This document shows, in pieces, positions 1,485 to 63,921 of a DNA stretch of 64,000 nt. The position numbers and the translations under genes were made by a program. A model generated the notes under the pieces. It searched no databases. It worked only from the letters and a program-made list of their open reading frames with translations, and was not told where the DNA came from. This DNA comes from Mobula hypostoma (Eukaryota): NCBI RefSeq assembly GCF_963921235.1, contig NC_086097.1, positions 33,544,001 through 33,608,000 on the forward strand, given 5' to 3'. Each line of letters begins with the position of its first letter. Position 1 is the first letter of the stretch.

Positions 1485-1495
1485 TCGTATTCGTA

Positions 1496-3274: not shown

Positions 3275-3530
3275 TATCCCCAGGTATTTGTAATCCTCCA
3301 CCATGTCCACATTGACCCCCTGGATGGAAACAAGGGTCACCGGTACCTTAGCTCTCCTCAGGTCTACCATCAGTTCCTTAGTCTTTTTCACATTAAACTG
3401 CAGATAATTCTGCTCACACCATGTGACAAAGTTTCCTACTGTAGCCCTGTACTCAACCTCATCTCCCTTGCTGATACATTCAACTATGGCAGAGTCATCC
3501 GAAAACTTCTGAAGATGACAAGACTCTGCG
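3274..3530 (-). mobile_element. Rex1/Babar LINE, upstream part of the element at 850-1484
   Basis: ORF 3254..3559 reads KFSDDSAIV...WCEQNYLQFNVKKTKELMVD...YKYLGI. It joins RIDNKLDWSKN at 1484 once the CR1 is removed. Confidence 0.85.
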
Positions 3531-5048: not shown

Positions 5049-5785
5049 TGTTGGCCATGATGTATTTAAAATATGGAAGATAATGTCAAACTCAAATGGG
5101 TCAAGGACAGTGGAAGCAGACAGATCAATTGTCTTTGTTTCTGCCATGTGTTTGGAGATGGAGGCAGCCATTCAGTGAAACTGTTTTACGTCTGCCATTT
5201 TGTGAGGTGAAGTTGCTTGGCTATCTGTGTTTTAAAGTAGACACAATGATGCTTCAGGTTATCTGTTGGACTAAAGAAAAATTCCAAATAAGCTATCTGT
5301 GAGGTGTTCTTTGATATAATATAACTTGCAAGTTTCAGAATATTGGGGACTGTGCCTGACTGGAGTGATTGGAGCTGGTTACTAAAGAGTGCCATAAATT
5401 ACCAGTTGTCACTTTTGGATTAGAGCCAATAAAAATATGTTTAAGGTGCCAATGACACTGAAAGGTGATACTTGATAAAAGCAGATGCTTTAAGTGTGCT
5501 ATCAGCAGTAACTCTCAAGAGACCCACCATTGCAAGGAAGGATCCCCACGCCAGGAACTGGGAGAAGAAAGGGTCAATCGTCTGGCCTGCGGAGTTCCCC
5601 TACTTTGGTGTTATAAATTAGGAAAATGGTCTGAGTGAGTATTGGTACAGAGGAATCAGAAGAATTAAGGTTTTAAGTTGTTGACCTGGGGACAACATAG
5701 TTATGTTGTTTGTGCAGAGACAATAAAGTTCGAGCTTTGATTAATTAAACATTGTATAGTGAGTTTCGTTGATGAATGGTCACCA
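5049..5785. mobile_element. Probable solo LTR (737 bp) inserted in the older CR1
   Basis: It begins TGTTGGCCAT and ends ATGGTCACCA (TG...CA, 8/10 inverted match). Flanks are CTGC and CTGT, a 4-bp TSD with one mismatch. CR1 sequence resumes on both sides, there is an AATAAA near 5722, and no TE-like ORF. Confidence 0.65.
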
Positions 5786-6200
5786 CTGTGGTATAGTCCA
5801 TCTATCCAGGTGACTTGTCTACCTTCACAGTTTTCAGTTTCCCAAGAACCTTCTCCCTAGTAATGACAACTTCACCCACTTCTGGCATACTGCTAATGCC
5901 TTCCACAGCAAAGACTGATGCAAAATACTGATTCACTTCATCTGCCATTTACTATTACTATTGCCATTCCCCATTACTACCTCTCCAGCACCATTTTCCA
6001 GTGGTCCAATATCTACTCTCCACTCTTACACTTTACATATCTCAAGAAACTTTTGGTGTCCTCTTTAATATTTTTAGCTAATTTACCCTTGAATTCCATC
6101 TTTTTCTTCTTTATGTCTTTTCAGTTGCCTCCTGCTGGTTTTTAGAAGCTTCCCAGTCCTCTAACTTCCCACTAATTTTTGCTCTATTCTATGCCTTCTC
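5786..6200 (-). mobile_element. Older CR1 LINE, segment 2
   Basis: CR1 linker sequence (GPDG region, tagtccatct..ccaggtgacttgtct) continues segment 1. Confidence 0.7.
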
Positions 6201-9200
6201 CATAGAAACCATAGAAACTACAGCACAGAAACAGGCCTTTTGGCCCTTCTTGGCTGTGCCGAACCATTTTCTGCCTAGTCCCACTGACCTGCACACGGAC
6301 CATATCCCTCCATACACCTCCCATCCATGTATCTGTCCAATTTATTCTTAAATGTTAAAAAAGAACCCGCATTTACCACCTCGTCTGGCAGCTCATTCCA
6401 TACTCCCACCACTCTCTGTGTGAAGAAGCCCCCCCCCAATGTTCCCTTTAAACTTTTCCCCCCTCACCCTTAACCCATGTCCTCTGGTTTTTTTCTCCCC
6501 TTGCCTCAGTGGAAAAAGCCTGCTTGCATTCACTCTATCTATACCCATCATAATTTTATATACCTCTATCAAATCTCCCCTCATTCTTCTACGCTCCAGG
6601 GAATAAAGTCCTAACCTATTCAACCTTTCTCTGTAACTGAGTTTCTCAAGTCCCAGCAACATCCTTGTAAACCTTCTCTGCACTCTTTCAACCTTATTAA
6701 TATCCTTCCTGTAATTTGGTGACCAAAACTGAACACAATACTCCAGATTCGGCCTCACCAATGCCTTATACAACCTTATCATAACCTTCCAGCTCTTATA
6801 CTCAATACTTCGATTAATAAAGGCCAATGTAACAAAAGCTCTCTTTACAACCCTATCTACCTGTGATGCTACTTTTAGGGAATTTTGTATCTGTTTTCCC
6901 AGATCCCTCTGTTCCACTGTACTCCTCAGTGCCTTACCATTAAATCTGTATGTTCTACCTTGGTTTGTCCTTCCAACGTGCAATACCTCACACTTGTCTG
7001 TATTTAACTCCATCTGCCATTTTTCAGCCCATTTTTCCAGCTGGTCCAAGTCCCTCTGCAGGCTGTGAAAACCTTCCTCACTGTCTACTACACCTCCAAT
7101 CTTTGTATCATCAGCAAATTTGCTGATCCAATTTACCACATTATCATCCAGATCATTGATATAGATGACAAATAACAATGGACCCAGCACTGATCCCTGT
7201 GGCACACCACTAGTCACAGGCCTCCACTTGGAGAAGCAATTCTCTACTACCACTCTTTGGCTTCTTCCATTGAGCCAATGTCTAATCCAATTTACCACCT
7301 CTCCATGTATACCTAGCGAATGAATTTTCCTAACTAATCTCCCATGCGGGACCTTGTCAAAGGCCTTACTGAAGTCCATGTAGACAATACTCACTGCCTT
7401 CCCTTCATCCACTTTCTTGGTATCCTCCTCGAAAAACTCCAATAGATTGGTCAAACATGACCTACCACGCACAAAGCCATGTTGACTCTCCCTAATAAGT
7501 CCCTGTCTATCCAAATGCTTGTAGATTCTGTCTCTTAGTACTCCCTCCAATAACTTACCTACTACCGACGTTAAACTTACTGGCCTATAATTGTCCAGAT
7601 TACTTTTCGATCCTTTTTTAAACAACGGAACAACATGAACCACTCTCCAATCCTCCGGCACCTCACCTGTAGACAGCGACATTTTAAATATTGCTGCCAG
7701 GGCCCCTGCAATTTCAACACTAGTCTCCTTCAAGGTCCGAGGGAACACCCTGTCAGGTCCCGGGGATTTATCCACTTTAATTTTCCTCAAGACAGCAAGG
7801 ACCTCCTCTTTTTCGATCTGTACAGTTTCCATGATCTCACTACCTGTTTCCCTTAATTCCATAGACTTCATGCCAGTTTCCTTAGTAAACACAGACGCAA
7901 AAAACCTATTTAAGATCTCCCCCATTTCCTTTGGTTCCGCACATAGCCGACCACTCTGATCTTCAAGAGGACCAATTTTATCCCTTACAATCCTTTTGCT
8001 CTTAATATACCTGTAAAAGCTCTTTGGATTATCCTTCACTTTGACTGCCAAGGCAACCTCATGTCCTCTTTTAGCCCTCCTGATTTCTTTCTTAAGTATT
8101 TTCTTGCACTTCTTATACTCCTCAAGCACCTTATTTACTCCCTGCTTCCTACACATGTCATATAACTCCCTCTTCCTCTTTATCAGAGTTGCAATATCCC
8201 TTGAGAACCAAGGTTCCTTATTCCTATTCACTTTGCCTTTAATCCTGACAGGAACATACAAATTCTGCACTCTCAAAATTTCTGCTTTGAAGGCTTCCCA
8301 CCTACCGATCACATCCTTGCCAGAGAACAACCTGTCCCAATCCACGCTTTTTAGATCCTTTCTCATTTCTTCAGATTTGGCCTTCTTCCAGTTAAGAACC
8401 TCAACCCTAGGACCAGATCTATCCTTGTCCATGATCAAATTAAAACTAATAGTGTTATGATCACTGGAACCAAAGTGCTCCCCTACACAGACTTCCGTCA
8501 CTTGTCCTAACTCGTTTCCTAACAGGAGATCCAATATTGCATCCCCTCTAGTTGGTCCCTCTATATATTGATTTAGAAAACTTTCCTGAACATATTTTAC
8601 AAACTCTAAACCATCTAGACCCCTAACAGTATGGGAGACCCAATCAATGTATGGAAAATTAAAATCCCCTACCACCACAACTTTATGTTTCCTGCAGTTG
8701 CCTGCTATCTCTCGCAGATTTGCTCTTCCAATTCTCGTTGACTATTGGGTGGTCTGTAATACAATCCCACTAATGTGGCCATACCTTTCCTGTTTCTCAG
8801 CTCCACCCATAAGGCCTCAGTAGACAAGCCCTCTAATCTGTCCTGCCTGAGCACTGCTGTAATATTTTCCCTAACAAGCAATGCTACTCCCCCACCTTTC
8901 ATTCCTCTGCCTCGATCACATCTGAAACATCGGAACCCTGGAATATTAAGCTGCCAGTCCTGCCACTCCTGTAGCCAAGTTTCACTAATTGCTATAATGT
9001 CATAATGCCACATGTCAATCCACGCCCTCAACTCATTCGCCTTCCCCACAATACTCCTAGCATTGAAATATATACACCTCAGAAGATTTTTACCACCACT
9101 CACAACCTTTCTATTAGTGGATTTGCTTGAACTTTTAACATCATTTATTTTCACCCCAGCCACACTTTCACTCTGGTACTGTGGTTCCCATCCCCCTGCA

Positions 9201-23154: not shown

Positions 23155-23410
23155 TTTATTCATTTATTTAGCAATACAATGCGGACTAGGCCCTTCCATG
23201 GCACCCCAGCAACCCCAGACTAACCCGATTAATCCTACCTAATCACCGGGCAACTTACAATTACCAATTTATCTACCCGGTACATCTCTCGACTGTGGGA
23301 GGAAACCGGAGGACCTGGAGAAAACCCACCCAGTCCAAGGGGAGGACGTACAGAGACTCCTTACAGAATGGCTCTGGAATTAAACTCCTAAACTGCTACA
23401 CTACCATGAC
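23155..23410 (-). mobile_element. V-SINE/HE1-like SINE inserted in a CR1 relic
   Basis: Same gactgtgggaggaaaccgg core as the element at 22566-22840. Confidence 0.65.
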
Positions 23411-23454
23411 CCCCAAGGACAGAAAACTCCTCCTCCTCTGTAATCCGTACATCA

Positions 23455-24807
23455 ATTGATATGAAGTGCTTCGAGAGATTGGTTATGGCACACATCAACC
23501 ACAGCCTACTGGTCAACCTCGACGCTTTGCAATTCGCCTACCAGAGCAACAGGTCATTGGCAGATGCCATCTCTCTGGCCCTACATTCCTCCTTAGAACA
23601 CCTGGAGAATAAAGATGCATACGTAAGGCTCCTTTTTATTGACTACAGCTCTGCCTTTAATACCATCATTCCAAATAAACTGATTCCTAAGCTCCGGAAC
23701 CTGGACCTTAGCACTCAGATCTGCATCTTCAACTTCCTCACAGACAGGACCCAGGCTGTAAAAATAGGGGACAAGCTCTCCTCTACAAACACTCTGAGCA
23801 CTGGTGCCCCACAAGGCTGTGTACTCAGGCCCCTGCTGTACTCACTGTATACCCATGATTGTGTAGCCAAGTTTCCATCAAATTCAATATATAAGTTTGC
23901 TGATGACACAACAATCGTAGGCCGTATCTTGGGTAATGATGATTTTGAGTACAGAGAGGAAATTAAGAACCTGGAGGCATGGTGCGAAGACAATAACCTA
24001 TCCCTCAACATCAGCAAGACGAAGGAATTGGTTGTTGACTTCAGAAGGAGTAGCGAACCGCACAACCCAATTTACATCGGTGGTGCGCAAGTGGAACAGG
24101 TCAAAAGCTTTAAGTTCCTCGGGGTCAATATCACAAATGACCTGACTTGGTCCAACCAAGCAGAGTTCACTGCCAAGAAGGCCCACCAGTGCCTTTACTT
24201 CCTGAGAAAACTAAAGAAATTTGGCCTGTCCCCTAAAACCCTAATTTTCATAGAAAGCATTCTTCTTGGGTGCATCACAACCTGGTATGGAAGTTGTCCT
24301 GTCCAAGACCGAAAGAAGCTGCAGAAGATCGTGAACACGGCGCAGCACATCACACAAACCAATCTTCCGTCCATGGATTCACTTTACACCACACGCTGTC
24401 GGAGCAGTGCTGCCAGGATAATCAAGGACACGACCCACCCAGCCAACAGACTTTTCGTCCCTCTTCCCTCCAGGAAAAGGTTCAGGAGCTTGAAGACTCA
24501 TACAGCCAGATTTGGGAACAGCTTCTTTCCAACTGTGTAAGACTGCTGAACGGATCCTGACCCGGATCTGGGCCGTACCCTCCAAATATCCGGACCTGCC
24601 TCTCGGTTTTTTTGCACTACCTTACTTCCCATTTTTCTACAAATGTATTTTCTATTTATGATTTATAATTTAAATTTTTAATATTTACTAATTTTAACTA
24701 TTTTTAATATTTATTATTTGTAATCCAGGGAGTGTGAAGCGCAGAATCAAATATCGCTGTGATGATTGTACGTTCTAATACTAATTATTTGGCGACAATA
24801 AAGTATG
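23455..24807 (+). mobile_element. Rex1/Babar LINE, 5'-truncated, long open RT frame
   Basis: ORF 23461..24540 reads MKCFERLV...[11 protein letters not shown]...GAPQGCVL...KFADDT...KFLG...SFFP. It ends AATAAAGTATG and sits inside a minus-strand CR1 relic (22905-25350). Confidence 0.9.
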
Positions 24808-25751: not shown

Positions 25752-27387
25752 GACCCTGGGGGTGTGTGACGGGACAGTGTGGAGGGAGCTTCACTCTGTG
25801 TGACCCCAGGGGTGTGTGATGGAACAGTGTGGAGCGAGCTTCACTCTGTGCGACCCCAGGGGTGTGTGATGGAACATGTGGAGGGAGCTTCACTCTGTGT
25901 GACCCCAGGGGTGTGTGATGGAACATGTGGAGGGAGCTTCACTCTGTGTGACCCCAGGGGTGTGTGATGGAACATGTGGAGGGAGCTTCACTCTGTGTGA
26001 CCCCAGGGGTGTGTGATGGAACAGTGTGGAGGGAGCTTCACTCTGTGTGACCCCAGGGGTGTGTGATGGAACAGTGTGGAGCGAGCTTCACTCTGTGCGA
26101 CCCCAGGGGTGTGTGATGGAACAGTGTGGAGGGAGCTTCACTCTGTGTGACCCCAGGGGTGTGTGATGGAACAGTGTGGAGCGAGCTTCACTCTGTGCGA
26201 CCCCAGGGGTGTGTGATGGAACAGTGTGGAGGGAGCTTCACTCTGTGCGACCCCAGGGGTGTGTGATGGAACAGTGTGGAGCGAGCTTCACTCTGTGCGA
26301 CCCCAGGGGTGTGTGATGGAACAGTGTGGAGGGAGCTTCACTCTGTGTGACCCCAGGGGTGTGTGATGGAACAGTGTGGAGCGAGCTTCACTCTGTGCGA
26401 CCCCAGGGGTGTGTGATGGAACAGTGTGGAGGGAGCTTCACTCTGTGTGACCCCAGGGGTGTGTGATGGAACATGTGGAGGGAGCTTCACTCTGTGTGAC
26501 CCCAGGGGTGTGTGATGGAACAGTGTGGAGGGAGCTTCACTCTGTGTGACCCCAGGGGTGTGTGATGGAACAGTGTGGAGGGAGCTTCACTCTGTGTGAC
26601 CCCAGGGGTGTGTGATGGAACATGTGGAGGGAGCTTCACTCTGTGTGACCCCAGGGGTGTGTGATGGAACAGTGTGGAGCGAGCTTCACTCTGTGCGACC
26701 CCAGGGGTGTGTGATGGAACAGTGTGGAGGGAGCTTCACTCTGTGTGACCCCAGGGGTGTGTGATGGAACAGTGTGGAGCGAGCTTCACTCTGTGCGACC
26801 CCAGGGGTGTGTGATGGAACAGTGTGGAGGGAGCTTCACTCTGTGTGACCCCAGGGGTGTGTGATGGAACATGTGGAGGGAGCTTCACTCTGTGCGACCC
26901 CAGGCGTGTGTGATGGAACAGTGTGGAGGGAGCTTCACTCTGTGTGACCCCAGGGGTGTGTGATGGAACATGTGGAGGGAGCTTCACTCTGTGTGACCCC
27001 AGGGGTGTGTGATGGAACATGTGGAGGGAGCTTCACTCTGTGTGACCCCAGGGGTGTGTGATGGAACATGTGGAGGGAGCTTCACTCTGTGTGACCCCAG
27101 GGGTGTGTGATGGAACAGTGTGGAGGGAGCTTCACTCTGTGTGACCCCAGAGGTGTGTGATGGAACATGTGGAGGGAGCTTCACTCTGTGTGACCCCAGG
27201 GGTGTGTGATGGAACAGTGTGGAGGGAGCTTCACTCTGTGTGACCCCAGGGGTGTGTGATGGAACAGTGTGGAGGGAGCTTCACTCTGTGTGACACCAAG
27301 GGTGTGTGATGGGACAGTGAAGTTGGAGGGAGCTTCACTCTGTGTGACCCCAGGGGTGTGTGATGGAACATGTGGGGGGAGCTTCAC
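25752..27387 (+). repeat. Minisatellite, 49/50-bp unit, about 33 copies
   Basis: Unit ccccaggggtgtgtgatggaacagtgtggagggagcttcactctgtgtga; copies are nearly identical. Confidence 0.97.
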
Positions 27388-27467
27388 CACATCTCCACAG
27401 ACCATCCAACTGAAACTCCGTTTCCCCTGGACTTGGTGATGGTAACAGCTGTTGTGTTTTGGTGCAG

Positions 27468-27584
27468 GCAACATTGAGTACAGCTGTCCCGCTAGCCAGA
27501 CGTGTGACATCGCCAAACCGCGGCACAAGTCCTGCCAGGCCTGTCGATTTGTGAAGTGCCTGAAGGTGGGAATGCTGAGAGAAG
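27468..27584 (+). CDS. ESRRB: Estrogen-related receptor (NR3B, ESRRB/G-like) exon, second zinc finger; gene may be a pseudogene and paralog identity is unresolved
   Basis: tgcag|...|gtatgg, 117 nt, phase 1-1. Encodes (G)[38 protein letters not shown](G) versus [43 protein letters not shown]. Confidence 0.85.
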
Positions 27585-27809
27585 GTATGGACAGGGAGAC
27601 CACACACCCGTCCAACCATACACTCACCCCACACTATTCCCCACCTCTGCCGCATCACGCATTTTCCCCTATGCCATTCCAGCATACACTCAGCCCACCA
27701 CAGACTGCTCACACTATCCACCACAGACTCCTCCCACACCATCCCAAGATACATTCCCCCTACACCTTCTCAGCACACTCTTCCCACACTGTCTCTCCAT
27801 GTTGCCTAA

Positions 27810-28035
27810 TCACACATTCCTGAGGTCAAATACCGAGTGAAACTCCCTCCACACTGTCCCATCACTCACTCCCAGGGTCAGACACAGAGTGAAGCTCCCT
27901 CCACACTGTCCCATCACTCACTCCCAGAGTCAAACACAGAGTGAAGCTTCCTCCACACTGTCCCATCACTCACTCCCAGGGTCAAACACAGAGTGAAGCT
28001 CCCTCTACACCACACACTCCCTGGGTCAGAGTGAA
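27810..28035 (-). repeat. About 4 inverted copies of the 50-bp minisatellite family
   Basis: acacagagtgaagctccctccacactgtcccatcac is essentially the reverse complement of the array unit. Confidence 0.9.
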
Positions 28036-33944: not shown

Positions 33945-36245
33945 TACCAACTAGAGGAGAGGCTGTACTGATCTGGTATTGGGAAATGAATCCGGTCAGG
34001 TGTCAGATTTCTCAGACGGAGGGCATTTTGGAGGCAGTGATCACAACTCTGTCTCCTTTACCATAGCGCTGGAGAGGGATAGGAGCAAACTATTTGGGGA
34101 AAAAAATTAATTGGGGTAGGGGGAAATATGATGCTCTCAGGCAAAAACTTGGGATCATAAATTGGGAGCAGATGTTCTCAGGGAAATGCACGGCAGAAAT
34201 GTGGCAAATATTCAGAGAATATTTGCATGGCATTCTGCATAGGTATGTTCCATTGAGGCAGGGAAAGGATGGCAGGGTAAAAGAACCATGGTGCACAAAG
34301 GATGTAGAAAATCTAGTTAAGAAGAAAAGCTTAAGAAAGGTTTAAGAAACTGGGTACTGTTAGAGCTCTAGAAAATTACAAAGTTGCCAGGAAAGAGCTT
34401 AAGAATGAAATTGGGAGAGTCAGAAGGGGCCATGAAAATGCCTTGGCGAGAAGGATTAAGGAAAACCCCAAGGCATTCTACAAGTATGTGAAGAGCAACA
34501 GGATGAGCCATGTGAGAATAGGACCAATCAGGTGCTATAGTGGAAACATGTGCATGGAGTCGGAGGAGGTAGCGGAGGTACTCAATGGGTAATTTGCTTC
34601 AGTATTCACCGATGAAAAGGACTTTGGCAATTGTGGAGAGTTACAGCGGACTGAAACGCTTATTAAGACAGAGGGTGTGCTGGATAATTTGAAAAGCATT
34701 TAGATAAGTTGCTGGGTCCAGACGAGATATATCCCAGACTACTGTGGTAAGCGAGGGGGGAGATTGCTGAGCCTCTGACGATGATCTTTGCATCATCAAT
34801 AGGGACAGGAGAAGAACTAGAGGAGTGGAGGGTTGCAAATGTTGTTCCCTGTTCAAGAAAGTGAGTAGAGATAACCCAGGAAATTATAGACCAATGAGTC
34901 TTACTTCAGTAGTGGGCAAGTTATTGGAGAAGATCCTGAAAGGCAGGATTTATGAGCATTTGGAAAGACATAATCTGGTTAGGGATAGTCAGCATGGCTT
35001 TGTCAAGGGCAGGTCATGCCTTACGAGCCTGATTGAATTATTTGAGGATATAACAAATTACATTGAAGGTAGAACAGTGGATGTAGTGTATATGGATTTC
35101 AGTAAAGCAATTGATCATGTTCCCCATGCAAGGCTCATTCAGAAAGTAAGGAGGTGTGGGATTCAAGGAGACCTTGCTTTATGGATCCAGAACTGGCTTG
35201 CCCACAGAAGGCAAAGAGTAGTTGTAGATGGGTCATATTCTGCATGGAGGTCGGTGACCAGTGGTGTGCCTCAGGGATCTGTTGTGGTACTCCTCGTCTT
35301 TATGATTTTTATAAATGACCTGGATGAGGAAGTGGAGGGATGGGTTAGTAAGTTTTCTGATGACACAAACGTTGGGGGTGTTGCGGATAGTCTGGAGAAT
35401 TGTCAGAGATTACAGATAGGATGCAAAACTGGGCTGAGAAATGGCAGATGGAGTTCAACCCAGATAAGTGTGGAGTAGTTAACTTTGGGAGGTCAAATTT
35501 GAAGACAGAATATAATATTAATGGTAACACTCTTGGCAGTTTGGAGGATCAGAGAGATCTTGCAGTCCGTGTCCACAGGACACTCAAAGCTGCTACGCAG
35601 GTCGACAGTGTTGTTAAGAATGCGTATGGTGTGTTGGCCTTCATCCACCGTGGGATTGAGTTCAAGAGCCCTGAGATAATGTTACAGCTATATAAGACCT
35701 GGGTTAGACCCCACTTGGAGTACTGTGTTCAGTTCTGGTAACCTCACTACAGGAAGGATGTGGATACTATAGAGAGAGTGTAGAGGAGATTTACGAGGAT
35801 GTTGCCTGGATTGGAGAGCGCGCCTTACGAGAATAGGTTGAGTGAACTTGGCCTTTTCTCCTTGGAGCGACGGAGGAGGTGATATGACCTGACAGAGGTG
35901 TATAAGATGATGAGAGGCATTGATCGTGTGATTAGCAGAGGCTTTTTTTCCCCAGAGCTGAAATGGCTAACACGAGGGGGCATAGTTTTAAGGTGCTTGG
36001 AATTAGGTACAAGGGAGATGTCAGGGGTAAGTTTTTCACTCAGAGAGTGGTGGGTGCGTGGACTGCACTGCCAGCGACAGTGGTAGAGGCGGATACAATC
36101 GGGTCTTTTAAGAGCCTTTTAGATAGGTACATGGAGCTTAGAAAAATAGAGGGGTATGCGGTAGGGAAATTTTAGGCAGTTTCTAGAGTAGGTTACATTG
36201 TGGGCCGAAGGGTCTGTAATTTGCTGTAGATTTCTATGTTCTATG
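32800..36245 (+). mobile_element. Near full-length degenerate CR1 (ORF1 esterase relic and ORF2)
   Basis: IVCCLPGAKV (ORF1), YFNARSI/ITETW (APE), and RT ORFs 34825..35478 and 35400..35741. Tail ttctatgttctatg. A (TCAA)n(TA)n(CA)n run lies inside at ~33886-33946. Confidence 0.9.
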
Positions 36246-41200: not shown

Positions 41201-43038
41201 TGACAGAGACCCGAGTAACTAGATCGGAGGGTCAGAGAAAGAGTATCTGCGTGTAACTGGATCGGAGTGTAACCGATTCAGAGTGTAATCGGATCGGAAA
41301 GAGAAACCGGGTCAAGGAAACAGTATCGGAGTGTAACCTGATCACAGAAACAGAAGCACATAAACCGGATCGGAGAGAGAAACAGGGTTAGGGAAAAAGT
41401 ATATGGGTGTAACCAGATCAGAGACACGGGGAATCTGAGAGAAACCGGATCGGTATCCAGACCCGATGTAGCTGCAGAAGGAACAGGTCCCAGGTCTGTA
41501 AAAACTACTTTCCGAGAAAAATTTCCTTGGGGGAGTGAGCGTTGGAGAGAGGGATGGGGGGTGCGATGGAGAGAGGGAAGGGGTGGAATGGGGGAGAGAA
41601 GGGATGGGGGTGAGGGAAGTGAAATTAGTAGTCAATTGGGGATATTAAAGAGGTGTTGTCTATTTTGGGAGGAGGTCGGGAGATGCGGAAGTTCAGCACG
41701 TGAAAAAGTGGATAACGCGCTGGGCCCAGATGCCCCCAGGGCACTAACAACAGTTGATCTTCTCCATTCACTCCAACCTCCCCGCCACCTCCCCCCCCCC
41801 CCCCCCCGCCAGAAAGGAATGACTTTGCCCGGGGTTTCAAATTGAGGACGGCATTCACCAAGTAACTGGTGAGCAGTTATATCATAAGACATAGGAGCAG
41901 AAATAGGCCATTTGGACCATCGATTCTGCTCCGACTTTCAATCATGGCTGTTCCCTTTTTCCCTCTCCTCAGCCCCACTCCCCGTAACCTTTGATGCCTT
42001 AAATACACCCAAACGACCTGGCCCCCACAGCTGCCTGTGGTAACAGATTCCACAAATTCACCACCCTCTGGCTAAAGAAATTTCTCCGCATATCAGTTAG
42101 ACTTGGGGAATGGATATACAGTATACAGGAGTCGATGGCGACTGGAGCATTGGGCCGCAGGTGGGGAGACTGAGCCAGATCTAAAGGACAAATGGTCGAA
42201 TGGGCAGGGCAGAGAGTTCGGTTCGGGACCAGGGTGATGAGGGAGGCTGTCGGAGACGTCAGCTGATCCCTACGATGGTGTTTTAGAGGGTTGGGAGCTT
42301 AAAGTTCCGAGCTGTACAAGTTTCAGGTGTGACGTGGAGGATTTAAGTCAGGAGCGGGAGTCACAGCTCTGAATATAGAGATTCACGGGGGGAGGGGGAA
42401 TGCAGGGATCTTCCAATGAGGCTACAGAAGCAGAACGGATCTCTGCGCCGGGTTATACAGTCAATGGTCAAAGTGAATTGGAGGGACAGACGTCGCCAAC
42501 GTTAGCAAGGTGGAAGGGCAGTGGGTTACCTGAGTACCTTAACTTCCCCCGTGTGCTCTGGCATTGTCGTAAACTCCCTCACTACCGACCCGCTGAACAA
42601 ACGACGCAACCTCATTACCGTCCCAGCCACAGTGTGGTCCTCTCTAAGTACTGATTACTTCTAGAGTGCGGCGCTCCCTCAGCATTGCTTCTCCCGCAGT
42701 GTGATCCCCCATTTGTACCGACGCTCCCTCATTACCACCCCTCCCTCAGTGTAAGCCGCAGTGCTGCTTTTCCCACAGTGCGACTCTTCTTAGATACCAA
42801 TGTGCCATGGATCCCAAGGGTTTCTGGAGATTGTTTCCACACAGACACTATGGCTGACCTCGTTGGGCAGGGGGTTGTGAATGAAGGTTCTTCTGTCAGG
42901 TCTCCCCTTCCTCGCAGCCCCCGCCCTTGTCTTATCTCCCCGTCCCACTTCCTCTGCCCTGGCTCCTCCACCTCCCATCCCCTCTCCACCCAACAATAAT
43001 CTCGCTCTCCTTACCCTCACAGATCACTGGGCCAGTTA

Positions 43039-44604
43039 ATGGCCGTTTGGCCCATGGGCCCCTATCTACAGATCGACCCACTCTCCCCCATCGGCAGGGG
43101 GAGGGGCTCCAGCAAGCTGCCCCCCATCAGCTCTGAAACCCCCAGCTTTTCCAAACTGGATGTGCTGAGGGAGCGGCTGCAGCAGAGGCTGGAGAAGGAG
43201 AGACAGGCGAAACTGACGGCCATATACCGACAGCAGTACCACCAGGCTCTGCTCCGACTACGGGCCACCTGCCTCCCCCAGGCTCCCCGCCCGCCACAGC
43301 CTTACCGCGCCGAAGAGCAACAGCCCAGTTGGTTACCTGGGTCCAAGCGGTGCCCGGGAATCGACAGGTCCCAGCCCCTGAAGCCCATCGACAGAACAGC
43401 CGGACCCTGCAGCGACGTCAGCCCAGGGGGCCCTGGATCGGACTGGCAGAGGCTCCTGCGACAGGAAGCCCCGCCATGGCCTGGCGTCACCTACCGTCCC
43501 TCTCCGCACAAAGCCCCCAGCGACAGGGCCAGGGAGACGGAGCTCGAGCCGCCGCGACCTCGCCACCGAGGTCGGGCAGGGCAGCGGCCCCAGCCTTGCT
43601 CACTGGCAGACCAGGGACGCAGCAGGGAGAACGTCATCGAGCAGCAGCTGAGGAGGATCGAGGCGGAGCTGAGGGGCATCCAGAGGCAGCGGGAGGCTGA
43701 GGAGGACGAAGAGGGGGCAGAAGGCGTCGAGATAATGAGGATGGAGAGGGAGTGGGAGAGGGAGAGGGGGTGGCAGAGGGAGAGGAGGGACAGTTTGGGG
43801 AAGCACAGGTCGGAGGGGGAGAGGTCAGAAGGGGGAAGTTCAGAGGGGGAGAGGTCAGAGAGAGAGGGGTCAGAAGGGGATAGGGAGAGGTCAGAGAGAA
43901 GGCGATCAGAGAGGCAAAGGTCAAGAAGAACAGGGGACAGGTCAAAAAGATCAGAAGGGGAAAGCTCAGGGAGGCATTGGTCGGAGGGCGAGCGAGCGAA
44001 AAGAGAAATAGGGAGTGAGAGGGAAGAGAGAGGAAGGGCGAGGGAGAGGATCAAAAGGGAGAAGTGGGAGAGGTCGGAGAAAGAAAGGCTGGGTGAAATA
44101 GATAGAGAAGTGAGGCTGAGGGATAGAGTGAGGGTGAGGGGAGACAGTCGAGTGGGTGGCGGAAACTGGGAGAGTGCAAATGGCCACTGGGCGGGAGGAG
44201 AGAGTGACAGGAGGGAAGGAGGGAGAGACAGAGGGGCAGCAGTCAGAGACGAGAGCCCGCAGGTCGCAGAAGACGACTGCGACCACTCAAACCCATTTGC
44301 AGGTTACACCGAGAGTCCAGCCGAAGTGAAGCAGAACTCACGGAACACGGAAGTTGATGAGACAGAGCGCGGAGACGGCGTGCAGAGCGGGGATGTGGGC
44401 TGGGACGGACACTACTCCCCCGAGGAGAAGTCTCACTGCTCGTACTGCGGCCGCCGATTCGTTCTGGATCGACTCGACACACACATGGAGATCTGTAAGA
44501 AGGTGTACAAGCGGAAACGGAAAATATACGACTCTGCGCAAAAGAGGGCCAAGGGGACGGATCTGGAGAACTATCAATGCAGCCACAAGATTGTTCCGAT
44601 ACCG
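43039..44604 (+). CDS. ZC2HC1C: ZC2HC1C-like zinc finger C2HC protein, large first coding exon (522 codons)
   Basis: Acceptor cctcacag| at 43022, ATG at 43039, long ORF with a coiled/charged region and CSYCGRRFVLDRLDTHMEICKK...KRKIYDSAQKRAKGTDLENY. Phase-0 donor ccg|gtgagg. Tail-to-tail with a NEK9-like gene, as in human. Confidence 0.85.
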
Positions 44605-45089
44605 GTGAGGAAAGGGGCTTCCCCAGAAGGGGTACAGGGGGACGGGAGGATGTGACACAACAAACCTGTCCAGGAGTCCATTGCCTAAGAGTGATTGATT
44701 GTCCGACAGTTTTTGAAACCTGCGCGGGAGAGTCCTTCTGAAATGGAAACGCCATTGCATTAGGACAATTCTCTCTCGACCTCAGAGGTCTGGGTCCAGT
44801 GGTACGAGTAATAGTCACAATTGGGGGCTTCCTTGATTGCAGTGGAAGATCATGACTTCTGTGCCTTGTCAGGCGCTTCGCTTTCAACGAAGCGTTGCAG
44901 AACCGCTTTCCTGGCCGGTGGATCTCATTCGTCCACGGCGCCGGAGCTGACATCACATGCTAGGGCAAAAATGTCCCCATCTCACAGGGGTATGGGGCCC
45001 GCCGGCTACCCTCACCTGGTTTACCCCACCTGCTGAAGCCGTATACTGTAGTGGGTGGGCATGCTGGTTAAATGGACACAACACGGCCT

Positions 45090-45770: not shown

Positions 45771-46454
45771 CAACTTGTGGGAGGTTTTGCACTTTGGAAA
45801 GTCTCACTGGTGTTGGGCCCCAGAGAGTACTCTAAAGGTGAAGAAGACTTGCTTAATGAGTCAGAGCAGAGTCATAAACATAAGAGATTCTGCAGTTGGT
45901 GGAAATCCAGAGTAAAACACACAAAAAAAAAGCTGGAGAAAATCAGCCGGTCAGACCTTCATCAGTCTCGGCCGGTAACGTCAACTTTCGATAGCTGCTG
46001 TTTGACCTGCTGAGTTCCTCCAGCATTTTGTGTGTGAGCCAGAGCAGAAAATGTCCGAGTAAACATGTTGGTAAACATTGGCTAGACCACAGGCGAAGAT
46101 CTCTGTCCAGTGGCTGGACAGGGTACAAAGGAGTCTGGCATGGAGTGTTTCAGTTCTCAGGCTGTCTCTCATCTCTCTGTGGGAATTGCAAAAATTATGG
46201 AACTCTGGGGTTGTTAGAAACCCGAAATGCAGAGGCTTAGAACAAGAACTGAGGGCAGAAGTGAATGTAAGAGAGGATACACGCTGTTCCACCCTCTCAT
46301 TGTGCCAAACTAACCAGTTTCCACCCAAAGGATGGCACAGGAGTGTGTTGGGAGCGGGTCTCAGAAATACTCTCACAAGCTCTTGAATCAAGTTTCAAAG
46401 GGCTGGTTAAAAAAATGCACTGGGGTACCGTACCCCAGTGTTATACAGTGGCAG

Positions 46455-48080
46455 GCCGTCTCCACCGGCACTATACCCGGTGTCATAGAGACATGCCGTC
46501 TCCACCGGTACTTTACCCGATATCATAGAGACATGCCATCTCCACCGGCACTATGTCCCGATGTCATAGAGATAAGCCATCTCCACCGGTACTATACCCG
46601 ATGTCATAGAGACATGCCGTCTCCACCGGTACTATACCCGGTGTCATAGAGACATGCCGTCTTCACCGGCACTATACCCGATGTCATAGAGACAAGCCAT
46701 CTCCACCGGTACTATGCCCTGATGTCATAGAGACATGCCGTCTCCACCGGCACTATGTCCCGATGTCATAGAGATAAGCCATCTCCACCGGTACTATACC
46801 CGATGTCATAGAGACATGCCTTCTCCACCGGTACTATGTCCCGGTGTCATAGAGACATGCCGTTTCCACCGGCACTATGTCCCGGTGTCATAGAGACATG
46901 CCGTCTCCACCGGTACTATGTCCCGGTGTCATAGAGACATGCCGTCTCCACCGGCACTATGTCCCGGTGTCATAGAGACATGCCGTCTCCACCGGTACTA
47001 TACCCGGTGTCATAGAGACATGCCGTCTCCACCGGTACTATGTCCCGGTGTCATAGAGACATGCCGTCTCCACCGGCACTATGTCCCGGTGTCATAGAGA
47101 CAAGCCGTCTCCACCGGCACTATGCCCTGGTGTCATAGAGACATGCCGTCTCCACCGGCACTATACCCGGTGTCATAGAGACATGCCGTCTCCACCGGTA
47201 CTATACCCGGTGTCATAGAGACATGCCGTCTCCACCGGTACTATACCCGGTGTCATAGAGACATGCCATCTCCACCGGCACTATGCCCCGGTGTTATAGA
47301 GACATGCCGTCTCCACCGGCACTATGCCCCGGTGTCATAGAGACATGCCATCTCCACCGGCACTATGTCCCGGTGTCATAGAGACATGCCGTCTCCACCG
47401 GTACTATACCCGGTGTCATAGAGACATGCCGTCTCCACCGGTACTTTACCCGGTGTCATAGAGATAAGCCATCTCCACCGGTACTATACCCGATGTCATA
47501 GAGACATGCCGTCTCCACCGGTACTATGCCCTGGTGTCATACAGACATGCCGTCTCCACCGGCACTATGCCCCGGTGTCATAGAGACATGCCATCTCCAC
47601 CGGTACTATACCCGGTGTCATAGAGACATGCCGTCTCCACCGGCACTATACCCGATTTCATAGAGACAAGCCATCTCCACCGGTACTATGCCCCGGTGTC
47701 ATAGAGACAAGCCATCTCCACCGGTACTATGCCCCGGTGTCATAGCGACAAGCCATCTCCACCGGTACTATGCCCTGGTGTCATAGAGACATGCCGTCTC
47801 CACCGGTACTATACCCGGTGTCATAGAGACATGCCGTCTCCACCGGCACTATACCCGATTTCATAGAGACAAGCCATCTCCACCGGTACTATGCCCCGGT
47901 GTCATAGAGACAAGCCATCTCCACCGGTACTATGCCCCGGTGTCATAGAGACAAGCCATCTCCACCGGCACTATGCCCCGGTGTCATAGAGACAAGCCAT
48001 CTCCACCGGTACTATGCCCCGGTGTCATAGAGACAAGCCATCCCCGCCGGTACTATGCCCTGGTGTTATAGAGATAGGCC
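46455..48080 (+). repeat. Minisatellite, 40/41-bp unit, about 40 copies (intronic)
   Basis: Unit tacccggtgtcatagagacatgccgtctccaccggtacta with variants. Confidence 0.97.
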
Positions 48081-52743: not shown

Positions 52744-52914
52744 CTACTCGATGTGGCAGAAGGAGCCGGAGCCTGGGGGTGAGGCAGGACTGGGGGGCTG
52801 GGAAGGTCCTGCTTCAGCCTCTGTCACCCTCTCCCCACTGCTACCCGTTCGTTGCTCTCCCAGGGCACGCACAGCAGCCCACAGCCGACGATTCTCCTCC
52901 TCCTGACTCTGCAC
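52744..52914 (-). CDS. NEK9: NEK9-like, predicted last coding exon
   Basis: ctacag| acceptor, phase 0. Encodes VQSQEEENRRLWAAVRAL...PGSGSFCHIE then TAG at 52746-52744. Assigned by splice signals and coiled-coil continuity, not by clear homology. Confidence 0.6.
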   Translation of the reverse strand: MQSQEEENRRLWAAVRALGEQRTGSSGERVTEAEAGPSQPPSPASPPGSGSFCHIE

Positions 52915-53443
52915 CTGTAGACAAAGGGCATCGTCACAGCGCGGAGTACAGGCAGATTAGTGGGTAAAGGACATTGTCACCCAGCACAGAATACAGGCAA
53001 ACTAGTCACCCAGTGCAAAGTACAGGCTGACCAGTAGGCAAATGGCATCGTCACCAAGCACAAAGTACAGGCGGACAGTGAACACAGTCACCCAATGCAA
53101 GAGTATGTGGACTAATAGGCAGGGAGCATCGTCACTCAGTACAGAGTACAGATGGACAAGTGGACAAAGGGCACCCACTGCAGAATGCAGAGGGACAAGA
53201 GGACAGAGGGCATCACCACCCAATGCGAGTACAGACAGAACAGGAGACAGGGAGCACCATCACTTAACACAGAGTACAGGTGGACAGTGGACATACAGAA
53301 CTGTACATGCAAACTGGGACTCAAACCCATGCCACTGGCACAGCATTCTGACAGAACCCAAGCACGGAAGAGACTCCATTAAAAGCCCTGGGGAACACGG
53401 TCCCGCACCCTGGGGTTAGTGGTGGGGGGAGGTGTCCACTGAC

Positions 53444-53497
53444 CTGCTGTTCCAAACGATTCACCGTCTCCTCATTAACCTTCAGCCTCTGTTCCAT
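53444..53497 (-). CDS. NEK9: NEK9-like, 54-nt coiled-coil exon
   Basis: gacag|MEQRLKVNEETVNRLEQQ|gtcagt, phase 0-0. Confidence 0.65.
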
Positions 53498-53888: not shown

Positions 53889-54086
53889 CCGGGAAAGTAA
53901 CTCCAGCACCTCGCTCAGGCGGTGGATCTCGGCCCCAGAGTGCCGGTTCTCCTCTTCCAATGCCTGCTGCCGCCTGAGGCACTCTGTCAGTCGTTGCTCC
54001 AGCTGTCCAAGCTCTGCCTGTACTTCACTACACACACACCGTTGCCCGGGAAATGTGGAACCGTCCCCTGAGTTTGCTCCATTCAC
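53889..54086 (-). CDS. NEK9: NEK9-like C-terminal coiled-coil exon
   Basis: tgcag|...CVCSEVQAELGQLEQRLTECLRRQQALEEEN...|gtaaat, 198 nt. Resembles NEK9 [31 protein letters not shown]. Confidence 0.8.
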
Positions 54087-55308: not shown

Positions 55309-55464
55309 CACTGCTGGCACATCAGCCGAGCCCGCTGCCTGACCCCTCTCCTCCATTGCCCTTGGCTGCCCATAGGGAAGGGTTTCTGCTTTCGATCGAG
55401 ATGGCGGCTTAGCTGCTTCCACTGGGCTCTCTGGGACTGCGATGAACTCGGTGTTCTCCAGTTC
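55309..55464 (-). CDS. NEK9: NEK9-like duplicated ELEN.EFI exon, copy 2
   Basis: cgcag|ELENTEFIAVPESPVEAAKPPSRSKAETLPYGQPRAMEERGQAAGSADVPAV|gtaagg, 156 nt, phase 0-0. Confidence 0.75.
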
Positions 55465-56189
55465 CTGCGGAGTGACAGGACGCAGATGTTAAACTGGTTT
55501 CTCAATTCGCACACAGTATGCAGCAAAACCCATGAGCCCCAGAAACACAGAGTGACATGTACACACATACCCAGATACACATGCAGTCTGCATGGACACG
55601 GGAGACAGTTGAGGTGGGGGAGATAAAGGAGGTGTCAGTCCAATTGCCTCTATCAGTCAGGGCACTGAGCCCAGCATAGAACATTACAGCACAATGTTGT
55701 GTTGACCCTTTAACCTACTCTAAGATCAATCGAACACTTCCCTCCCACATAGCCCTACAGTTTTCTATCAACCATGTGCTTATCTATGAGTTTCTTAAAT
55801 GTCCTAATGTATCTGCCACTACCACTACCACCACCCTGGCAGCGTGGTCCATGCATCCACCGCTTTGTGTAAAGAACTTACCTCTGACATCTCCCCTATA
55901 CTTTCCTCCAATCACCTTAAAATTATGCCCTCTTGTATTAGCCATCTCCTTCCTTGCAAAAATTCTCTGGCTATCCACTCAATCTGTGCCTCTTAGCATC
56001 TTATACACCTCTATCAAGTCACCTCTCATCCTCCTTTGCTCGAAAGAGAAAAGACCCAGGTTGCTCAACCTCTCCTCATAAGACGTGCTCTGTAAACCAG
56101 GCAGCATCCTGAATAGACTGGAAATGTTTTCCCTGGGGTGAAGGAAGCTGAGGTGTCAGGCAAAGAGTGTCTAAATCTAGAGTGATGTC

Positions 56190-56497
56190 CCTCTTCCTTC
56201 CCTTTCTCCCATAGTCTCCTCTCCTCTCCTTTCACATACCTTCTTCTCCAGCTCTTTACCTTTTTCACCTATCACCTCCCAGCTTCTTACTTCATCCACC
56301 CTCCCTGCCCCAGCTGGCTTCACCTATCGCCTTCTAGCTTGTCCTTCTTCCACTCACCCCAACCGTCTTATTCTGGCTTCTTCCCTCTTACTTTCCAGTC
56401 CTGAAGAAGGGTCTCAGCCCGAAAGGTCGACATTTTTCCTTTTCCACAGATGCTGCCTGACCTGCTAAGTTCCTCCAGCACTTAGTGTGTTTTGCTC
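56190..56497 (+). mobile_element. Penelope-derived 3' terminal fragment with a degenerate hammerhead motif
   Basis: agtc-CTGAAGA-agggtctcagccc-GAAA-ggtc-gac at 56397-56431, followed by the PLE terminal motif. Confidence 0.7.
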
Positions 56498-57193
56498 TAA
56501 ACCAAGAGGCACAGGTTTAAGATGAAAGGGGAAAGATCTAAAGGGAAACTAAGGGTCAAGTTTTTCCACACAGAGGGTGATGGAGGGAGATGAAACTACA
56601 GTTTGGACTTGGCACTTGGACACATACATGGACACAAAAGGTTAGAGGGATCTGGTCCAAATGCCGGCAAATGGAACTGACTTACATGGGTAATGGCCTG
56701 GATGAGTTGGCTGAAGGGCCTTTTTCTATGCTGTGTGATTCTATGACCGAGGTGTACGCGGGGTGTGCAGAAACTGTTTTGTACAGGTTGACGCACAGCA
56801 TGAACACACAGGTAGACAACCACATGGAAGCACACTGGGCAGGCTCAGCCGCAGATGTGTACGCACACACCTGTGGACGGATACACACACAACACACCCT
56901 ATGGATACCTGGACACATACATGCACACACCCCATGGATACGTGGACACACACAAACACACACCCACCCCACCTTTGGTCCCTCGACATACACACCGGGC
57001 ACACATGGACACACTGAGCAACACTCACCAGGACAGAGTGAGGGAAACATGAGATCTGATACACAGAGCAAGAGACAGTGGACACACATGCAGAACACTG
57101 AGAGACATTGTTCAAAGAGAGAGAGACACATACCAAGAGGTGCTCCGGAGTGGGAGAGGGGAGACAGGAGAGGGGAGAGGGACACACACACAC

Positions 57194-57364
57194 CGAGAGA
57201 TGCTGGGTTGAAGAGTAAACATCTGTCTCTAGCAGCTGACCCTCCTTGTCCTTCATCGCCCTCAGCTGCCCATAAGGAAGGGTGTCCGCCTCTGATCTGG
57301 ATGGCTGCCTAGGTGCTTCAGCTGGGCTCTCTGGAATTGGGATGAACTCGGCATTCTCCAGTTC
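57194..57364 (-). CDS. NEK9: NEK9-like ELENAEFIP exon, copy 1
   Basis: tgcag|ELENAEFIPIPESPAEAPRQPSRSEADTLPYGQLRAM...HLS|gtgtgt, 171 nt. Matches NEK9 ELENAEFIPMPDSP...DTLPY. Confidence 0.85.
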
Positions 57365-57630
57365 CTGCAGAATGATAGGGCGCAGGCGTTAAACCAACTT
57401 CTCAACTCGAATACACCCAGGTGTGCACCCACACACCTATGTCCCAGACATGCACACCACAGACACATATGCCCAGAGAGGAAGGTCAGTCTATGTGGAG
57501 AGGGAGTGTGGGGCAGTCATTCTGGGGGAAACGGAGAGTCAATCTTCTCCAGATGAGCTATCCACCCCCACCCCACACCCACTCCCATGCATGTGTGGAC
57601 CCCCCCCCCCGCCCCCAGGCTCCACCCTAC

Positions 57631-57791
57631 CTGTAGTAGCCACTGGGGGCAGGAGGTGTCGGTCAGCTGGCTGGAGGTGGTGAGCCGGTTGAAGAGGCCG
57701 ACGCCTCGTCTGTCCTCAGCCGTTCGTTTCATCCGGTTTTGCCGCTCACACTCAGAGACGGTGTCATCCTCTGGCAGAGAGCCCTGTGTAA
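57631..57791 (-). CDS. NEK9: NEK9-like exon ending SCPQWLLQ
   Basis: cccag|(V)TQGSLPEDD...EDRRGVG...SCPQWLLQ|gtaggg, phase 1-0. Matches NEK9 SCPGWLRK. Confidence 0.8.
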
Positions 57792-61367: not shown

Positions 61368-61405
61368 CTATGGCAGAAGAACATCATTAACCAGAACATC
61401 ATTAA

Positions 61406-63921
61406 AGGCCTCACCTTTGTCCCCCTTCGCCCACACCTCAGCGAGTTCCGTGTTCGCCATGATGCGGAACTCTTCTTCCGCCGTCTCCGTCTCCGAGCCT
61501 ACTTCTTCGGCAAGGACTCTTCCACCCCCACCAATGACCCCTTCTCCCGTCTTCAACCCTCCTCTTCTTCATGGACACCCCGCTCTGGTCTTCTGCCTGC
61601 TCTGGATCTCTTTATCGCTAACTGCCGACGGGACATCAACCGTCTCGACTTTGCCGCATCTTGTTCCCATTCCAACCTCACTCCTTCCGAATGCTCTGCT
61701 CTCCACTCCCTCCGCACTAATCCTAACCTTACTATTAAACCCGCTGATAAGGGAGGGTGCTGTTGTAGTCTGGCAGACTGACCTCTACCTTGCCAAGGCA
61801 CAGCGACAACTCGCGGATACCTCCTCTTATTTATCCCTCGATCGTGACCCCACTAAGGAGCACCAGGCCATTGTCTCCCACACCATCACCGACTTTATCC
61901 GCTCAGGGGATCTCCCATCCACTGCTACCAACCTTATAGTTCCCACACCTCGCACTTCCCGTTTCTACCTCCTACCCAAGATCCACAAACCTGCCTGTCC
62001 TGGCAGACCTACTGTCTCAGTTTGCTCCTGCCCCACTGAACTCGTTTCTGCATACCTCGAAACGGTTCTATCCCCCCTTGTTCAATCCCTTCCTACCTAT
62101 GTCCGTGACACTTCTCCCGCTCTTAAACTTTTCAATGATTTTAAGTTCCCTGGCCCCCACTGCTTTATTTTCACCATGTATGTCCAGTCCCTATATACTT
62201 CCATCCCCCATCAGGAAGGTCTCAAAGCTCTCCGCTTCTTTTTGGATTCCAGACCTAATCAGTTCCCCTCTACCACCACTCTGCTCCGTCTAGCGGAATT
62301 AGTCCTTACTCTCAATAATTTCTCCTTTGGCTCCTCCCACCTCCTCCAAACTAAAGGTGTAGCTATGGGCACCCGTATGGGTCCTAGCTATGCCTGCCTT
62401 TTTGTTGGCTTTGTGGAACAACCTATGTTCCATACCTATTGTGGTATCTGTCCCCCACTTTTCCTTTGCTACATCGACGACTGCATTGGCGCTGCTTCCT
62501 GCACGCATGCTGAGCTCGTTGACTTTATTAACTTTGCCTCCAACTTTCACCCTGCCCTCAAATTTACCTGGTCCATTTCCGACACCTCCCTCCCCTTTCT
62601 AGATCTTTCTGTCTCTGTCTCTGGAGACAGCTTATCCACTGATGTCTACTATAAGACTACTGACTCTCACAGCTCTCTGGACTATTCCACTTCTCACCCT
62701 GTCTCCTGCAAAAATGCCATCCCCTTCTCGTAATTCCTCCGTCTCCGCCGCATCTGCTCTCAGGATGAGACTTTTCATTCCAGGACGAGGGTGATGTCCT
62801 CCTTTTTTAAAGAAAGGGGCTTCCCTTCTTCCACCATCAACTCTGCTCTCAAATGCATCTCCCCCATTACCACATTTGCTCTCACTCCATCCTCCTGCCA
62901 CCCCACTAGGAATAGGGTTCCCCTGGTCCTCACCTACCACCCCACCAGCCTCCGGGTCCAACATATTATTCTCCGTAACTTCCGCCACCTCCAACGGGAT
63001 CCCACCACTAAGCACATCTTTCCCTCCCCGCCCCCCCGCTTTCCGCAGGGATCGCTCCCTACGCGACTCCCTTGTCCATTTGTCTCCCCCCCATCCCTCC
63101 CCACTGATCTCCCTCCTGACACTTATCCTTGTAAGCGGAACAAGTGCTACACATGCCCTTACACTTCCTCCCTTACCACCATTCAGGGCCCCAGACAGTC
63201 CTTCCAGGTGAGGCGACACTTCACCTGTGAGTCGGCTGGGGTGATATACTGCGTCCGGTGCTCCCGATGTGGCCTTCTATATATTGGTGAGACCCGACGC
63301 AGATTGGGAGACCGCTTTGCTGAACACCTACGCTCTGTCAGAGAAAGCAGGATCTCCCAGTGACCACACATTTTAATTCCACATCCCATTCCCATTCTGA
63401 CATGTCTATCCACTGCCTCCTCTACTGTAAAGATGAAGCCACACTCAGGTTGGAGGAACAACACCTTATATTCCGTCTGGGTAGCCTCCAACCTGATGAA
63501 CATTGACTTCTCTAACTTCCGCTAATGCCCCCCCTCCCCCTCATACCCCATCCGTTATTTATTTTTATACATACATTCTTTCTCTCACTCTCCTTTTTCT
63601 CCCTCTGTCCCTCTGACTATACCCCTTGCCCATCCTCTGGGTTCCCCCCCCCCACTTGTCTTTCTCCCTGGGCCTACTGTCCCATGATCCTCTCATATCC
63701 CCTTTGCCAATCATCTGTCCAGCTCTTGGCTCCATCCCTCCCCCGCCTGTCTTCTCCTATCATTTTGGTTCCCCCCCTCCCCCTCCCACTTTCAAATCTC
63801 TTACGAACTCTTCCTTCAGTTAGTCCTGACGAAGGGTCTCGGCCTGAAACGTCGACTGTACCTCTTCCTAGAGATGCTGCCTGGCCTGCTGCGTTCACCA
63901 GCAACTTTGATGTGTGTTGTT
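61406..63921 (+). mobile_element. Penelope-like retroelement (RT + GIY-YIG endonuclease), 5'-truncated and mildly disrupted
   Basis: KGLTFVP, KPADKG, FYLLPKIHK, SLYTSIP, GVAMGTRMGP, YIDD, LPFLD and VIYCVRCSRCGLLYIGET...RFAEH. Frameshifts near 61755 and 63030, stops at 62731 and 63361. TSD TCATTAACCAG at 61384 and 63922. Confidence 0.95.
63822..63857 (+). ncRNA. Minimal type I hammerhead ribozyme in the Penelope terminal repeat
   Basis: AGTC-CTGACGA-AGG(gtctcgg)CCT-GAAA-CG-TC^GACT: stem I AGUC/GACU, intact core, palindromic ACGU stem III. Confidence 0.75.

Follow-up and report, generated by a model that had tools for sequence, protein, structure and literature searches.

An exon carrying half of the NEK6/7-docking motif of NEK9 is duplicated in tandem in Mobula hypostoma and other batoids, and both copies enter one transcript

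Most tandemly duplicated exons end up as constitutive ones (PMC8373072, accessible sections), and symmetric exons, which often originate from internal tandem duplications, tend to encode disordered segments (PMC3632108, accessible sections). The exon pair described here, in the NEK9 gene of the ray Mobula hypostoma, resembles the constitutive cases as far as those sections describe them: it consists of a symmetric linker exon copied head-to-tail together with its acceptor, and both copies appear in the main isoform. However, it differs from them in that a mapped kinase-docking motif straddles the exon boundary and in that the exon has been multiplied in several fish lineages.

In human NEK9, binding of NEK7 was mapped to residues 810-828 (Haq et al., PMC4632185, from the accessible portions of which this and the following details are taken). 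Mutation of P809, W811, L812, L816, F821 or I822 abolishes this binding, W811 being hydrogen-bonded to the hinge region of NEK7. Activation of NEK7 requires this docking as well as dimerisation through the coiled coil of NEK9, for which the native coiled coil outperforms an artificial dimer. An initial annotation of the ray sequence had named the segment WL..ELENAEFIP as the NEK6/NEK7-binding region, which agrees with this map. To carry human residue numbers over to the ray, we used a mammalian record of 979 aa in which position 811 is Trp.

We analysed a stretch of 64,000 nt, hereafter the window, whose minus strand encodes the 3' part of NEK9, with the kinase exons located outside of it. Translation of the six 3' exons reproduces exactly the C-terminal 302 aa of RefSeq Nek9 isoform X2 (P0006), and copy 1 corresponds to residues 789-845 of the M. 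hypostoma NCBI Nek9 isoform X1 with a 100% match. The architecture is that of NEK9, with an N-terminal kinase, an RCC1 propeller and a C-terminal linker plus coiled coil (Pfam on record P0003; helix in the AlphaFold model). The features of the locus are the following:

57631..57651, minus strand: last part of the upstream exon, with the codons for C808-P809-x-W811-L812, one half of the docking motif; single, unduplicated.
57365..57544, minus strand: intron segment 5' of copy 1, homologous to the segment 5' of copy 2, with a branch-like TTAAC at -28.
57194..57364, minus strand: copy 1 exon of 171 nt in phase 0-0 (57 aa), with the C-terminal half of the docking motif, TLPY and a 17-aa tail.
57242..57244, minus strand: codon 41 (GAG) of copy 1, directly before which the stingray copy 1 models stop; Val in sawfish and electric ray; presumably a lost GT donor.
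55465..57193, minus strand: inter-copy intron, 1729 nt, GT-AG, removed in 4/4 runs; repeat-rich at about 55645-56770.
55465..55640, minus strand: intron segment 5' of copy 2, duplicated; 120/169 aligned nt identical.
55309..55464, minus strand: copy 2 exon of 156 nt in phase 0-0 (52 aa), with a degenerate half-site (equivalents of A819T and P823A) and TLPY.
53889..54086, minus strand: next exon, covering the last part of the linker and the first part of the coiled coil; RefSeq isoforms X1-X3 arise from its alternative donors.
52744..53497, minus strand: last two NEK9 coding exons (53444-53497 and 52744-52914), with the coiled coil and the C-terminal tail.

A repeat scan returned the two copies as a 172-nt direct repeat with 78% identity and a spacing of 1900. 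Along the first 39 codons, 94/117 nt are identical, and the homology dwindles past approximately codon 40, the tails being hardly alignable. Both exon lengths are divisible by 3 and free of stops at the predicted coordinates. The claim that 57194-57364 and 55309-55464 are paralogous, intact and phase 0-0 agrees with the repeat, with the open frames and with the exon boundaries of RNA-derived contigs. The similarity that had been noted along some 50 nt of the upstream intron is also present, but by alignment it extends along about 180 nt (57365-57544 versus 55465-55640), its score of 79 exceeding both the highest value among 300 shuffles (33) and those of seven other NEK9 introns (at most 37). 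This similarity is far above chance and demonstrates a tandem duplication at the DNA level that carried along the acceptor and the branch-like motif, with TTAAC kept at -28 in front of both copies. No homology was detected between the inter-copy intron and the intron 3' of copy 2 (score 28; shuffle maximum 43), and its comparison with the intron 5' of copy 1 gave a marginal score of 42 versus 36, corresponding to a low-complexity match. Adjacent homologous exons with a homologous flanking intron, as found here, are what defines a tandem exon duplication. The splice sites had been described as good, and both copies are indeed used at GT-AG ends, although the donor of copy 1 (TCG|gtgtgt) is off consensus and opens a GT repeat; this non-consensus donor appears to be lineage-specific. 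Pfam returned no family for either exon alone, and no match was obtained in a PDB sequence search with copy 1.

The splicing of the copies was followed in four runs from two organisms and two studies (two runs each), out of eight runs guessed to be RNA. We accepted these runs as transcripts on the grounds that exons are joined at GT-AG boundaries in their contigs, their RNA nature being otherwise guessed. Organism A is identical to the window in those parts of the exons that could be compared and is possibly not independent of the RefSeq models. Joints 57630/57363, 57193/55463 and 55307/54084 were found in 4/4 runs, and in each run one unbroken contig (3491, 3443, 886 and 1225 nt) spanned both copies. 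Both copies share one mature transcript in these 4/4 runs, as both or all copies share one protein in 14/14 batoid records, and the two are included by default in the major transcript. Of the two modes of splicing proposed at first, mutually exclusive or additive, the additive one is what the contigs contain. The junctions suggested then from the upstream exon to copy 1 and from copy 1 to copy 2 were seen in all the runs, and copy 2, whose permanent omission and disruption in related species would have refuted the initial reading, is spliced in and open in all the relatives' records examined.

Adjacency, homology, equal phase and similar length make the pair similar to the substitutions derived from tandem exon duplication, or mutually exclusive exons, described in the accessible sections of PMC8373072. 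However, the one-or-other inclusion that defines this class was not what we found, as the ray copies are included together in one contig, and we rejected this assignment. No exclusion mechanism was found among steric, spliceosome-type or frameshift barriers to double inclusion: the intron between the copies is a 1729-nt GT-AG intron with its own branch-like motif at -28, and the lengths are in frame. A scan of the window sequence for inverted repeats that could act as selector pairings returned 44 short imperfect repeats, the longest of 22 nt and none of them prominent.

Skipping of copy 1 in a minor or tissue-specific isoform would be a different matter, as it would join the W-L half to copy 2 and generate a complete site of altered affinity on a tether of shark length. 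Either skip would be in frame, both exons being phase 0-0, copy 2 bears E815, L816, F821 and I822, the donor of copy 1 is the non-consensus one, and contigs lose rare variants. However, the corresponding joint (57631->55464), whose search had also been suggested, was absent, like any other skip joint, among the 15 listed of 408 joints; the spliced contigs break across neither copy in 4/4 runs; no skip isoform exists among the 14 batoid NEK9 records; nothing bars the inclusion of both exons; and the swap product of Hypanus would bear L816P. A search for short proteins matched three shark fragments and no ray skip isoform. Such skipping seems to us improbable. The three Mobula RefSeq isoforms in the cluster differ solely at the donor of the exon after copy 2. 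In this coiled-coil exon (53889-54086, minus strand), alternative 5' splice sites generate isoforms X1, X2 and X3 (+2, 0 and -7 aa), changing the coiled coil, and the contigs of the examined runs use the X2 donor.

With respect to docking, the exon boundary falls between residues 814 and 815, so that P809, W811 and L812, encoded by the upstream exon, were left out of the duplication. By sequence, site 1 (upstream exon plus copy 1) has 6/6 of the residues essential for binding, as in human NEK9 810-828 (PMC4632185, accessible portions). Unlike the human protein described there, ray NEK9 has in addition a site 2 (copy 1 tail plus copy 2) with 3/6 of these residues, having S, Q and H at 809, 811 and 812, and a tether around 50 aa longer. 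The docking site had been proposed to be duplicated in part, and this holds for its C-terminal half, the P809/W811/L812 half being single. Copy 2 of the window keeps E815, L816, F821 and I822 and is altered at A819 and P823.

Among 12 later copies, including a moray copy whose alignment register is uncertain, W811 was found in 0/12, P809 in 0/12 and L812 in 1/12. The C-P-x-W-L pattern was present in 156/156 NEK9 records covering site 1, a count in which the pattern itself served as search anchor and which missed no NEK9 other than two short fragments. Residues E815, L816, A819, E820, I822 and P823 were invariant in 156/156. At eight near-invariant docking positions within the exon, the residue was kept in 56/56 cases for first copies, 64/64 for single copies and 49/64 for later copies, which shed invariant residues differently from lineage to lineage (L816P in Hypanus copy 2, for example). 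At site 2, the register of W811/L812 is filled by the 3' end of copy 1, whose length varies among rays. Site 2 most likely binds NEK6/7 weakly, if at all.

The analysis of 168 NEK9 records covering the region, mostly gene models and phylogenetically non-independent, revealed 18 multi-copy and 150 single-copy records, the call being based on self-scores that split cleanly (>=70 versus <=30). All the batoid records (14/14, every member of four batoid clusters having been read) were multi-copy and span four orders, with two copies in Mobula, Hypanus, Hemitrygon, Pristis, Leucoraja, Amblyraja and two further skate-cluster records, and three copies in Narcine. The examination of other rays and sharks, advised in the initial annotation, separated the batoids from six galeomorph genera of sharks and from the chimaera, whose complete records all have a single copy; the squalomorph records of Heptranchias and Pristiophorus, which end at or just past the exon, were left out for copy number. 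Outside the batoids, multiple copies were detected in two bichirs, one moray eel and one unverified sturgeon record. We discounted the latter (Acipenser sinensis), an unverified entry with identical copies; the other sturgeon and paddlefish records are single.

That sturgeon record indicates that false duplicates of this NEK9 exon may occur. For the Mobula window, however, we give practically no weight to the possibility that the assembly or the annotation is at fault or that one copy is a silent pseudo-exon: the copies differ at 23/117 nt and are common to other rays, and their splicing in contigs of two organisms refutes this reading.

A scan for self-repeats in 148 C-terminal regions gave 23 matches, 17 of them corresponding to the exon in question; no other duplicated C-terminal NEK9 exon was detected among these regions, the remaining 6/23 being low-complexity or weak coiled-coil matches. 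A profile search against 1.84 billion representatives returned five matches, two shark NEK9s and three repeat proteins that were unrelated on inspection.

Regarding the history of the copies, a tree was built from 25 exon peptides and 39 columns, with many open forks and with Rhincodon and Mustelus left out. The three copies of Narcine grouped together (100/98), and so did the skate copies (100/100). Holding all batoid first copies together was rejected (p-AU 2e-5), which rules out a single batoid event without later homogenisation. As several lineages have this exon doubled and the copies cluster by lineage, it was either duplicated repeatedly or homogenised, and the data fit both repeated independent duplications and one old event followed by gene conversion. 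A constraint joining copy 1 of sawfish with that of stingrays and Mobula was compatible with the data (p 0.066), as was one that united the two myliobatiform copies in a clade (p 0.23). The copy 1 tails of Mobula and sawfish share 5/11 residues, compared with 1-2 in cross comparisons. From the sequences, the duplication in the window is older than the split between Mobula and stingrays. Copy 1 has 40 aa in each of the two stingrays and 57 in Mobula, whose 17-aa tail is missing from the stingray models, while in sawfish its length is 50 or 53; codon 41, GAG in Mobula, lies in a context that differs by one base from a good donor, and we infer a shift of the donor at this codon between stingrays and Mobula.

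The comparison of copy 1 with copy 2 (33-39 codons) gave a dS of 0.52-0.59, a dN of 0.13-0.15 and a dN/dS of 0.22-0.26, with a bootstrap interval of about 0.08-0.68, below 1, a value that belongs to the pair and cannot be assigned to either copy; for the first 14 codons only, dN/dS was 0.38 with an interval that includes 1. Copy 2 of Mobula differs from those of two stingrays at 2/51 and 5/51 aa, a divergence no greater than that of the flanking linker exons (5/54 and 7-9/66 aa). In organism B, the two visible differences in copy 2, among three, are synonymous. A TLPY-like motif was present in 150/168 NEK9 records, and 34/40 positions of the TLPY block are kept in later copies.

These data bear on a reading in which the copy number itself is selected, the extra copy adding a second weak contact through half-site avidity for NEK6/7 or through a partner of TLPY. 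The persistence of the TLPY block, the low dN/dS between copies and the presence of multiple copies in four batoid orders, bichirs and one moray are in its favour, as is the weaker binding of a human NEK9 fragment ending at 826 compared with one ending at 859 (PMC4632185, accessible portions). However, mutations outside 810-828 did not affect NEK7 binding according to the same portions of that paper, the later copies drop invariant residues in different ways in each lineage, and one copy suffices in 150/168 records. We consider this multivalency unlikely, though less so than the skipping of copy 1.

The explanation that we favour, with moderate confidence, is that a symmetric exon from a disordered linker was duplicated in tandem and is spliced constitutively in both copies, leaving one intact docking site, an orphan half-site and a longer tether. 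One phase 0-0 exon was copied in tandem, taking along the branch point, the acceptor and no less than 180 nt of the intron before it; the upstream exon and copy 1 form a docking site for NEK6/7 that is intact by sequence, the orphan half-site follows, and in later copies the frame stays open while the docking residues drift. The chief effect would be geometric, a longer disordered tether between the docking site and the dimerising coiled coil. Single-copy species have 69-80 aa between W811 and a marker Cys that precedes the coiled coil, compared with 112-161 aa in six batoid records and 121 in reedfish. Such a tether would lower the effective concentration of the two NEK6/7 molecules docked per NEK9 dimer, and the activation driven by dimerisation would be loosened rather than abolished. 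The AlphaFold model of ray NEK9, of low confidence (mean pLDDT 52), has one helix at 784-791, another at 819-833 and the coiled-coil helix at 916-1006, whereas copy 2, thinly covered by aligned rows, is without any. As the model is weak overall, its low confidence along the linker is poor evidence of disorder.

The duplication was presumably tolerated because the frame is preserved and the exon lies in a linker, and such tolerance is supported by the last residues of copy 1, which occupy the W811/L812 register of site 2 and vary freely. In contrast, the divergence of copy 2, no faster than that of the flanking linker exons, the low dN/dS between copies and the synonymous differences of organism B weigh against pure tolerance, which also explains only in part why several lineages have this exon doubled, and no other C-terminal one. 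A bolder proposal, which we regard as doubtful, is that the exon represents a selected signalling module multiplied repeatedly (stingrays, sawfish, electric rays, skates, bichirs, moray) by independent duplication or ongoing conversion. It would tune the activation of NEK6/7 by NEK9 through tether length and weak contacts, TLPY would be an unrecognised binding motif with selected copy number, and rare skipping of copy 1 would yield a swap isoform. The duplication is expressed and conserved, and most likely mechanistically ordinary.

Both exons are already in RefSeq models, and the duplication as such seems to be undescribed: a literature search whose scope excluded most subscription papers found no description of NEK9 exon duplication in rays. 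With one, two or three copies of the exon and tethers that range between about 75 and 160 aa, rays form a natural series in which the effects of linker length and weak sites on NEK7 activation by NEK9 could be tested. In addition, the multi-copy state of all sampled batoids is a possible clade marker, and the locus is a small case of one exon repeatedly duplicated or converted. If the extra copy is a mere spacer, the finding is an ordinary one; what makes it worth following is the recurrence of the duplication together with the tether series.

Several other observations were made on NEK9 and its surroundings. The C-termini of ray and shark NEK9 end in F-C-x-I-E (window 52750-52761, minus strand; P0003, P0008, P0009, P0011, P0012, P0134), which we take to fit the LIR core, aromatic-x-x-aliphatic. 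This end was absent from the skate, chimaera and Carcharodon NEK9 records. The NEK9 LIR is said to be limited to land vertebrates and coelacanth in PMC8172835, whose accessible sections do not mention sharks. If F-C-x-I-E were functional, the LIR of NEK9 would be older and would have been lost in ray-finned fish. TQT, the core of the LC8-binding motif, was present in the last 120 aa of NEK9 in 5/7 tetrapod records and in 0/14 of the fish records checked, P0003 included, and an LC8 gate on NEK6/7 binding may be tetrapod-specific, to judge from these sequences. In isoform X1 of Acipenser ruthenus (P0170), the NEK9 tail is replaced by another sequence, suggesting read-through into a neighbouring gene, and the replacement presumably resembles acylphosphatase.

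Tail to tail with NEK9, the window contains a 551-aa open frame (43000-44655, plus strand) with a C2HC zinc finger below the curated cut-off, probably ZC2HC1C, which we take to be the neighbour of NEK9 in human. Two satellite arrays were found at 25752-28035 (units of ~50 nt), with an inverted block at 27809-28035, and at 46424-48080 (units of ~40 nt). Finally, the regions 999-8741, 23410-24540, 34771-35478 and 61400-63800 hold what we assume to be reverse-transcriptase-like remnants of retrotransposons.
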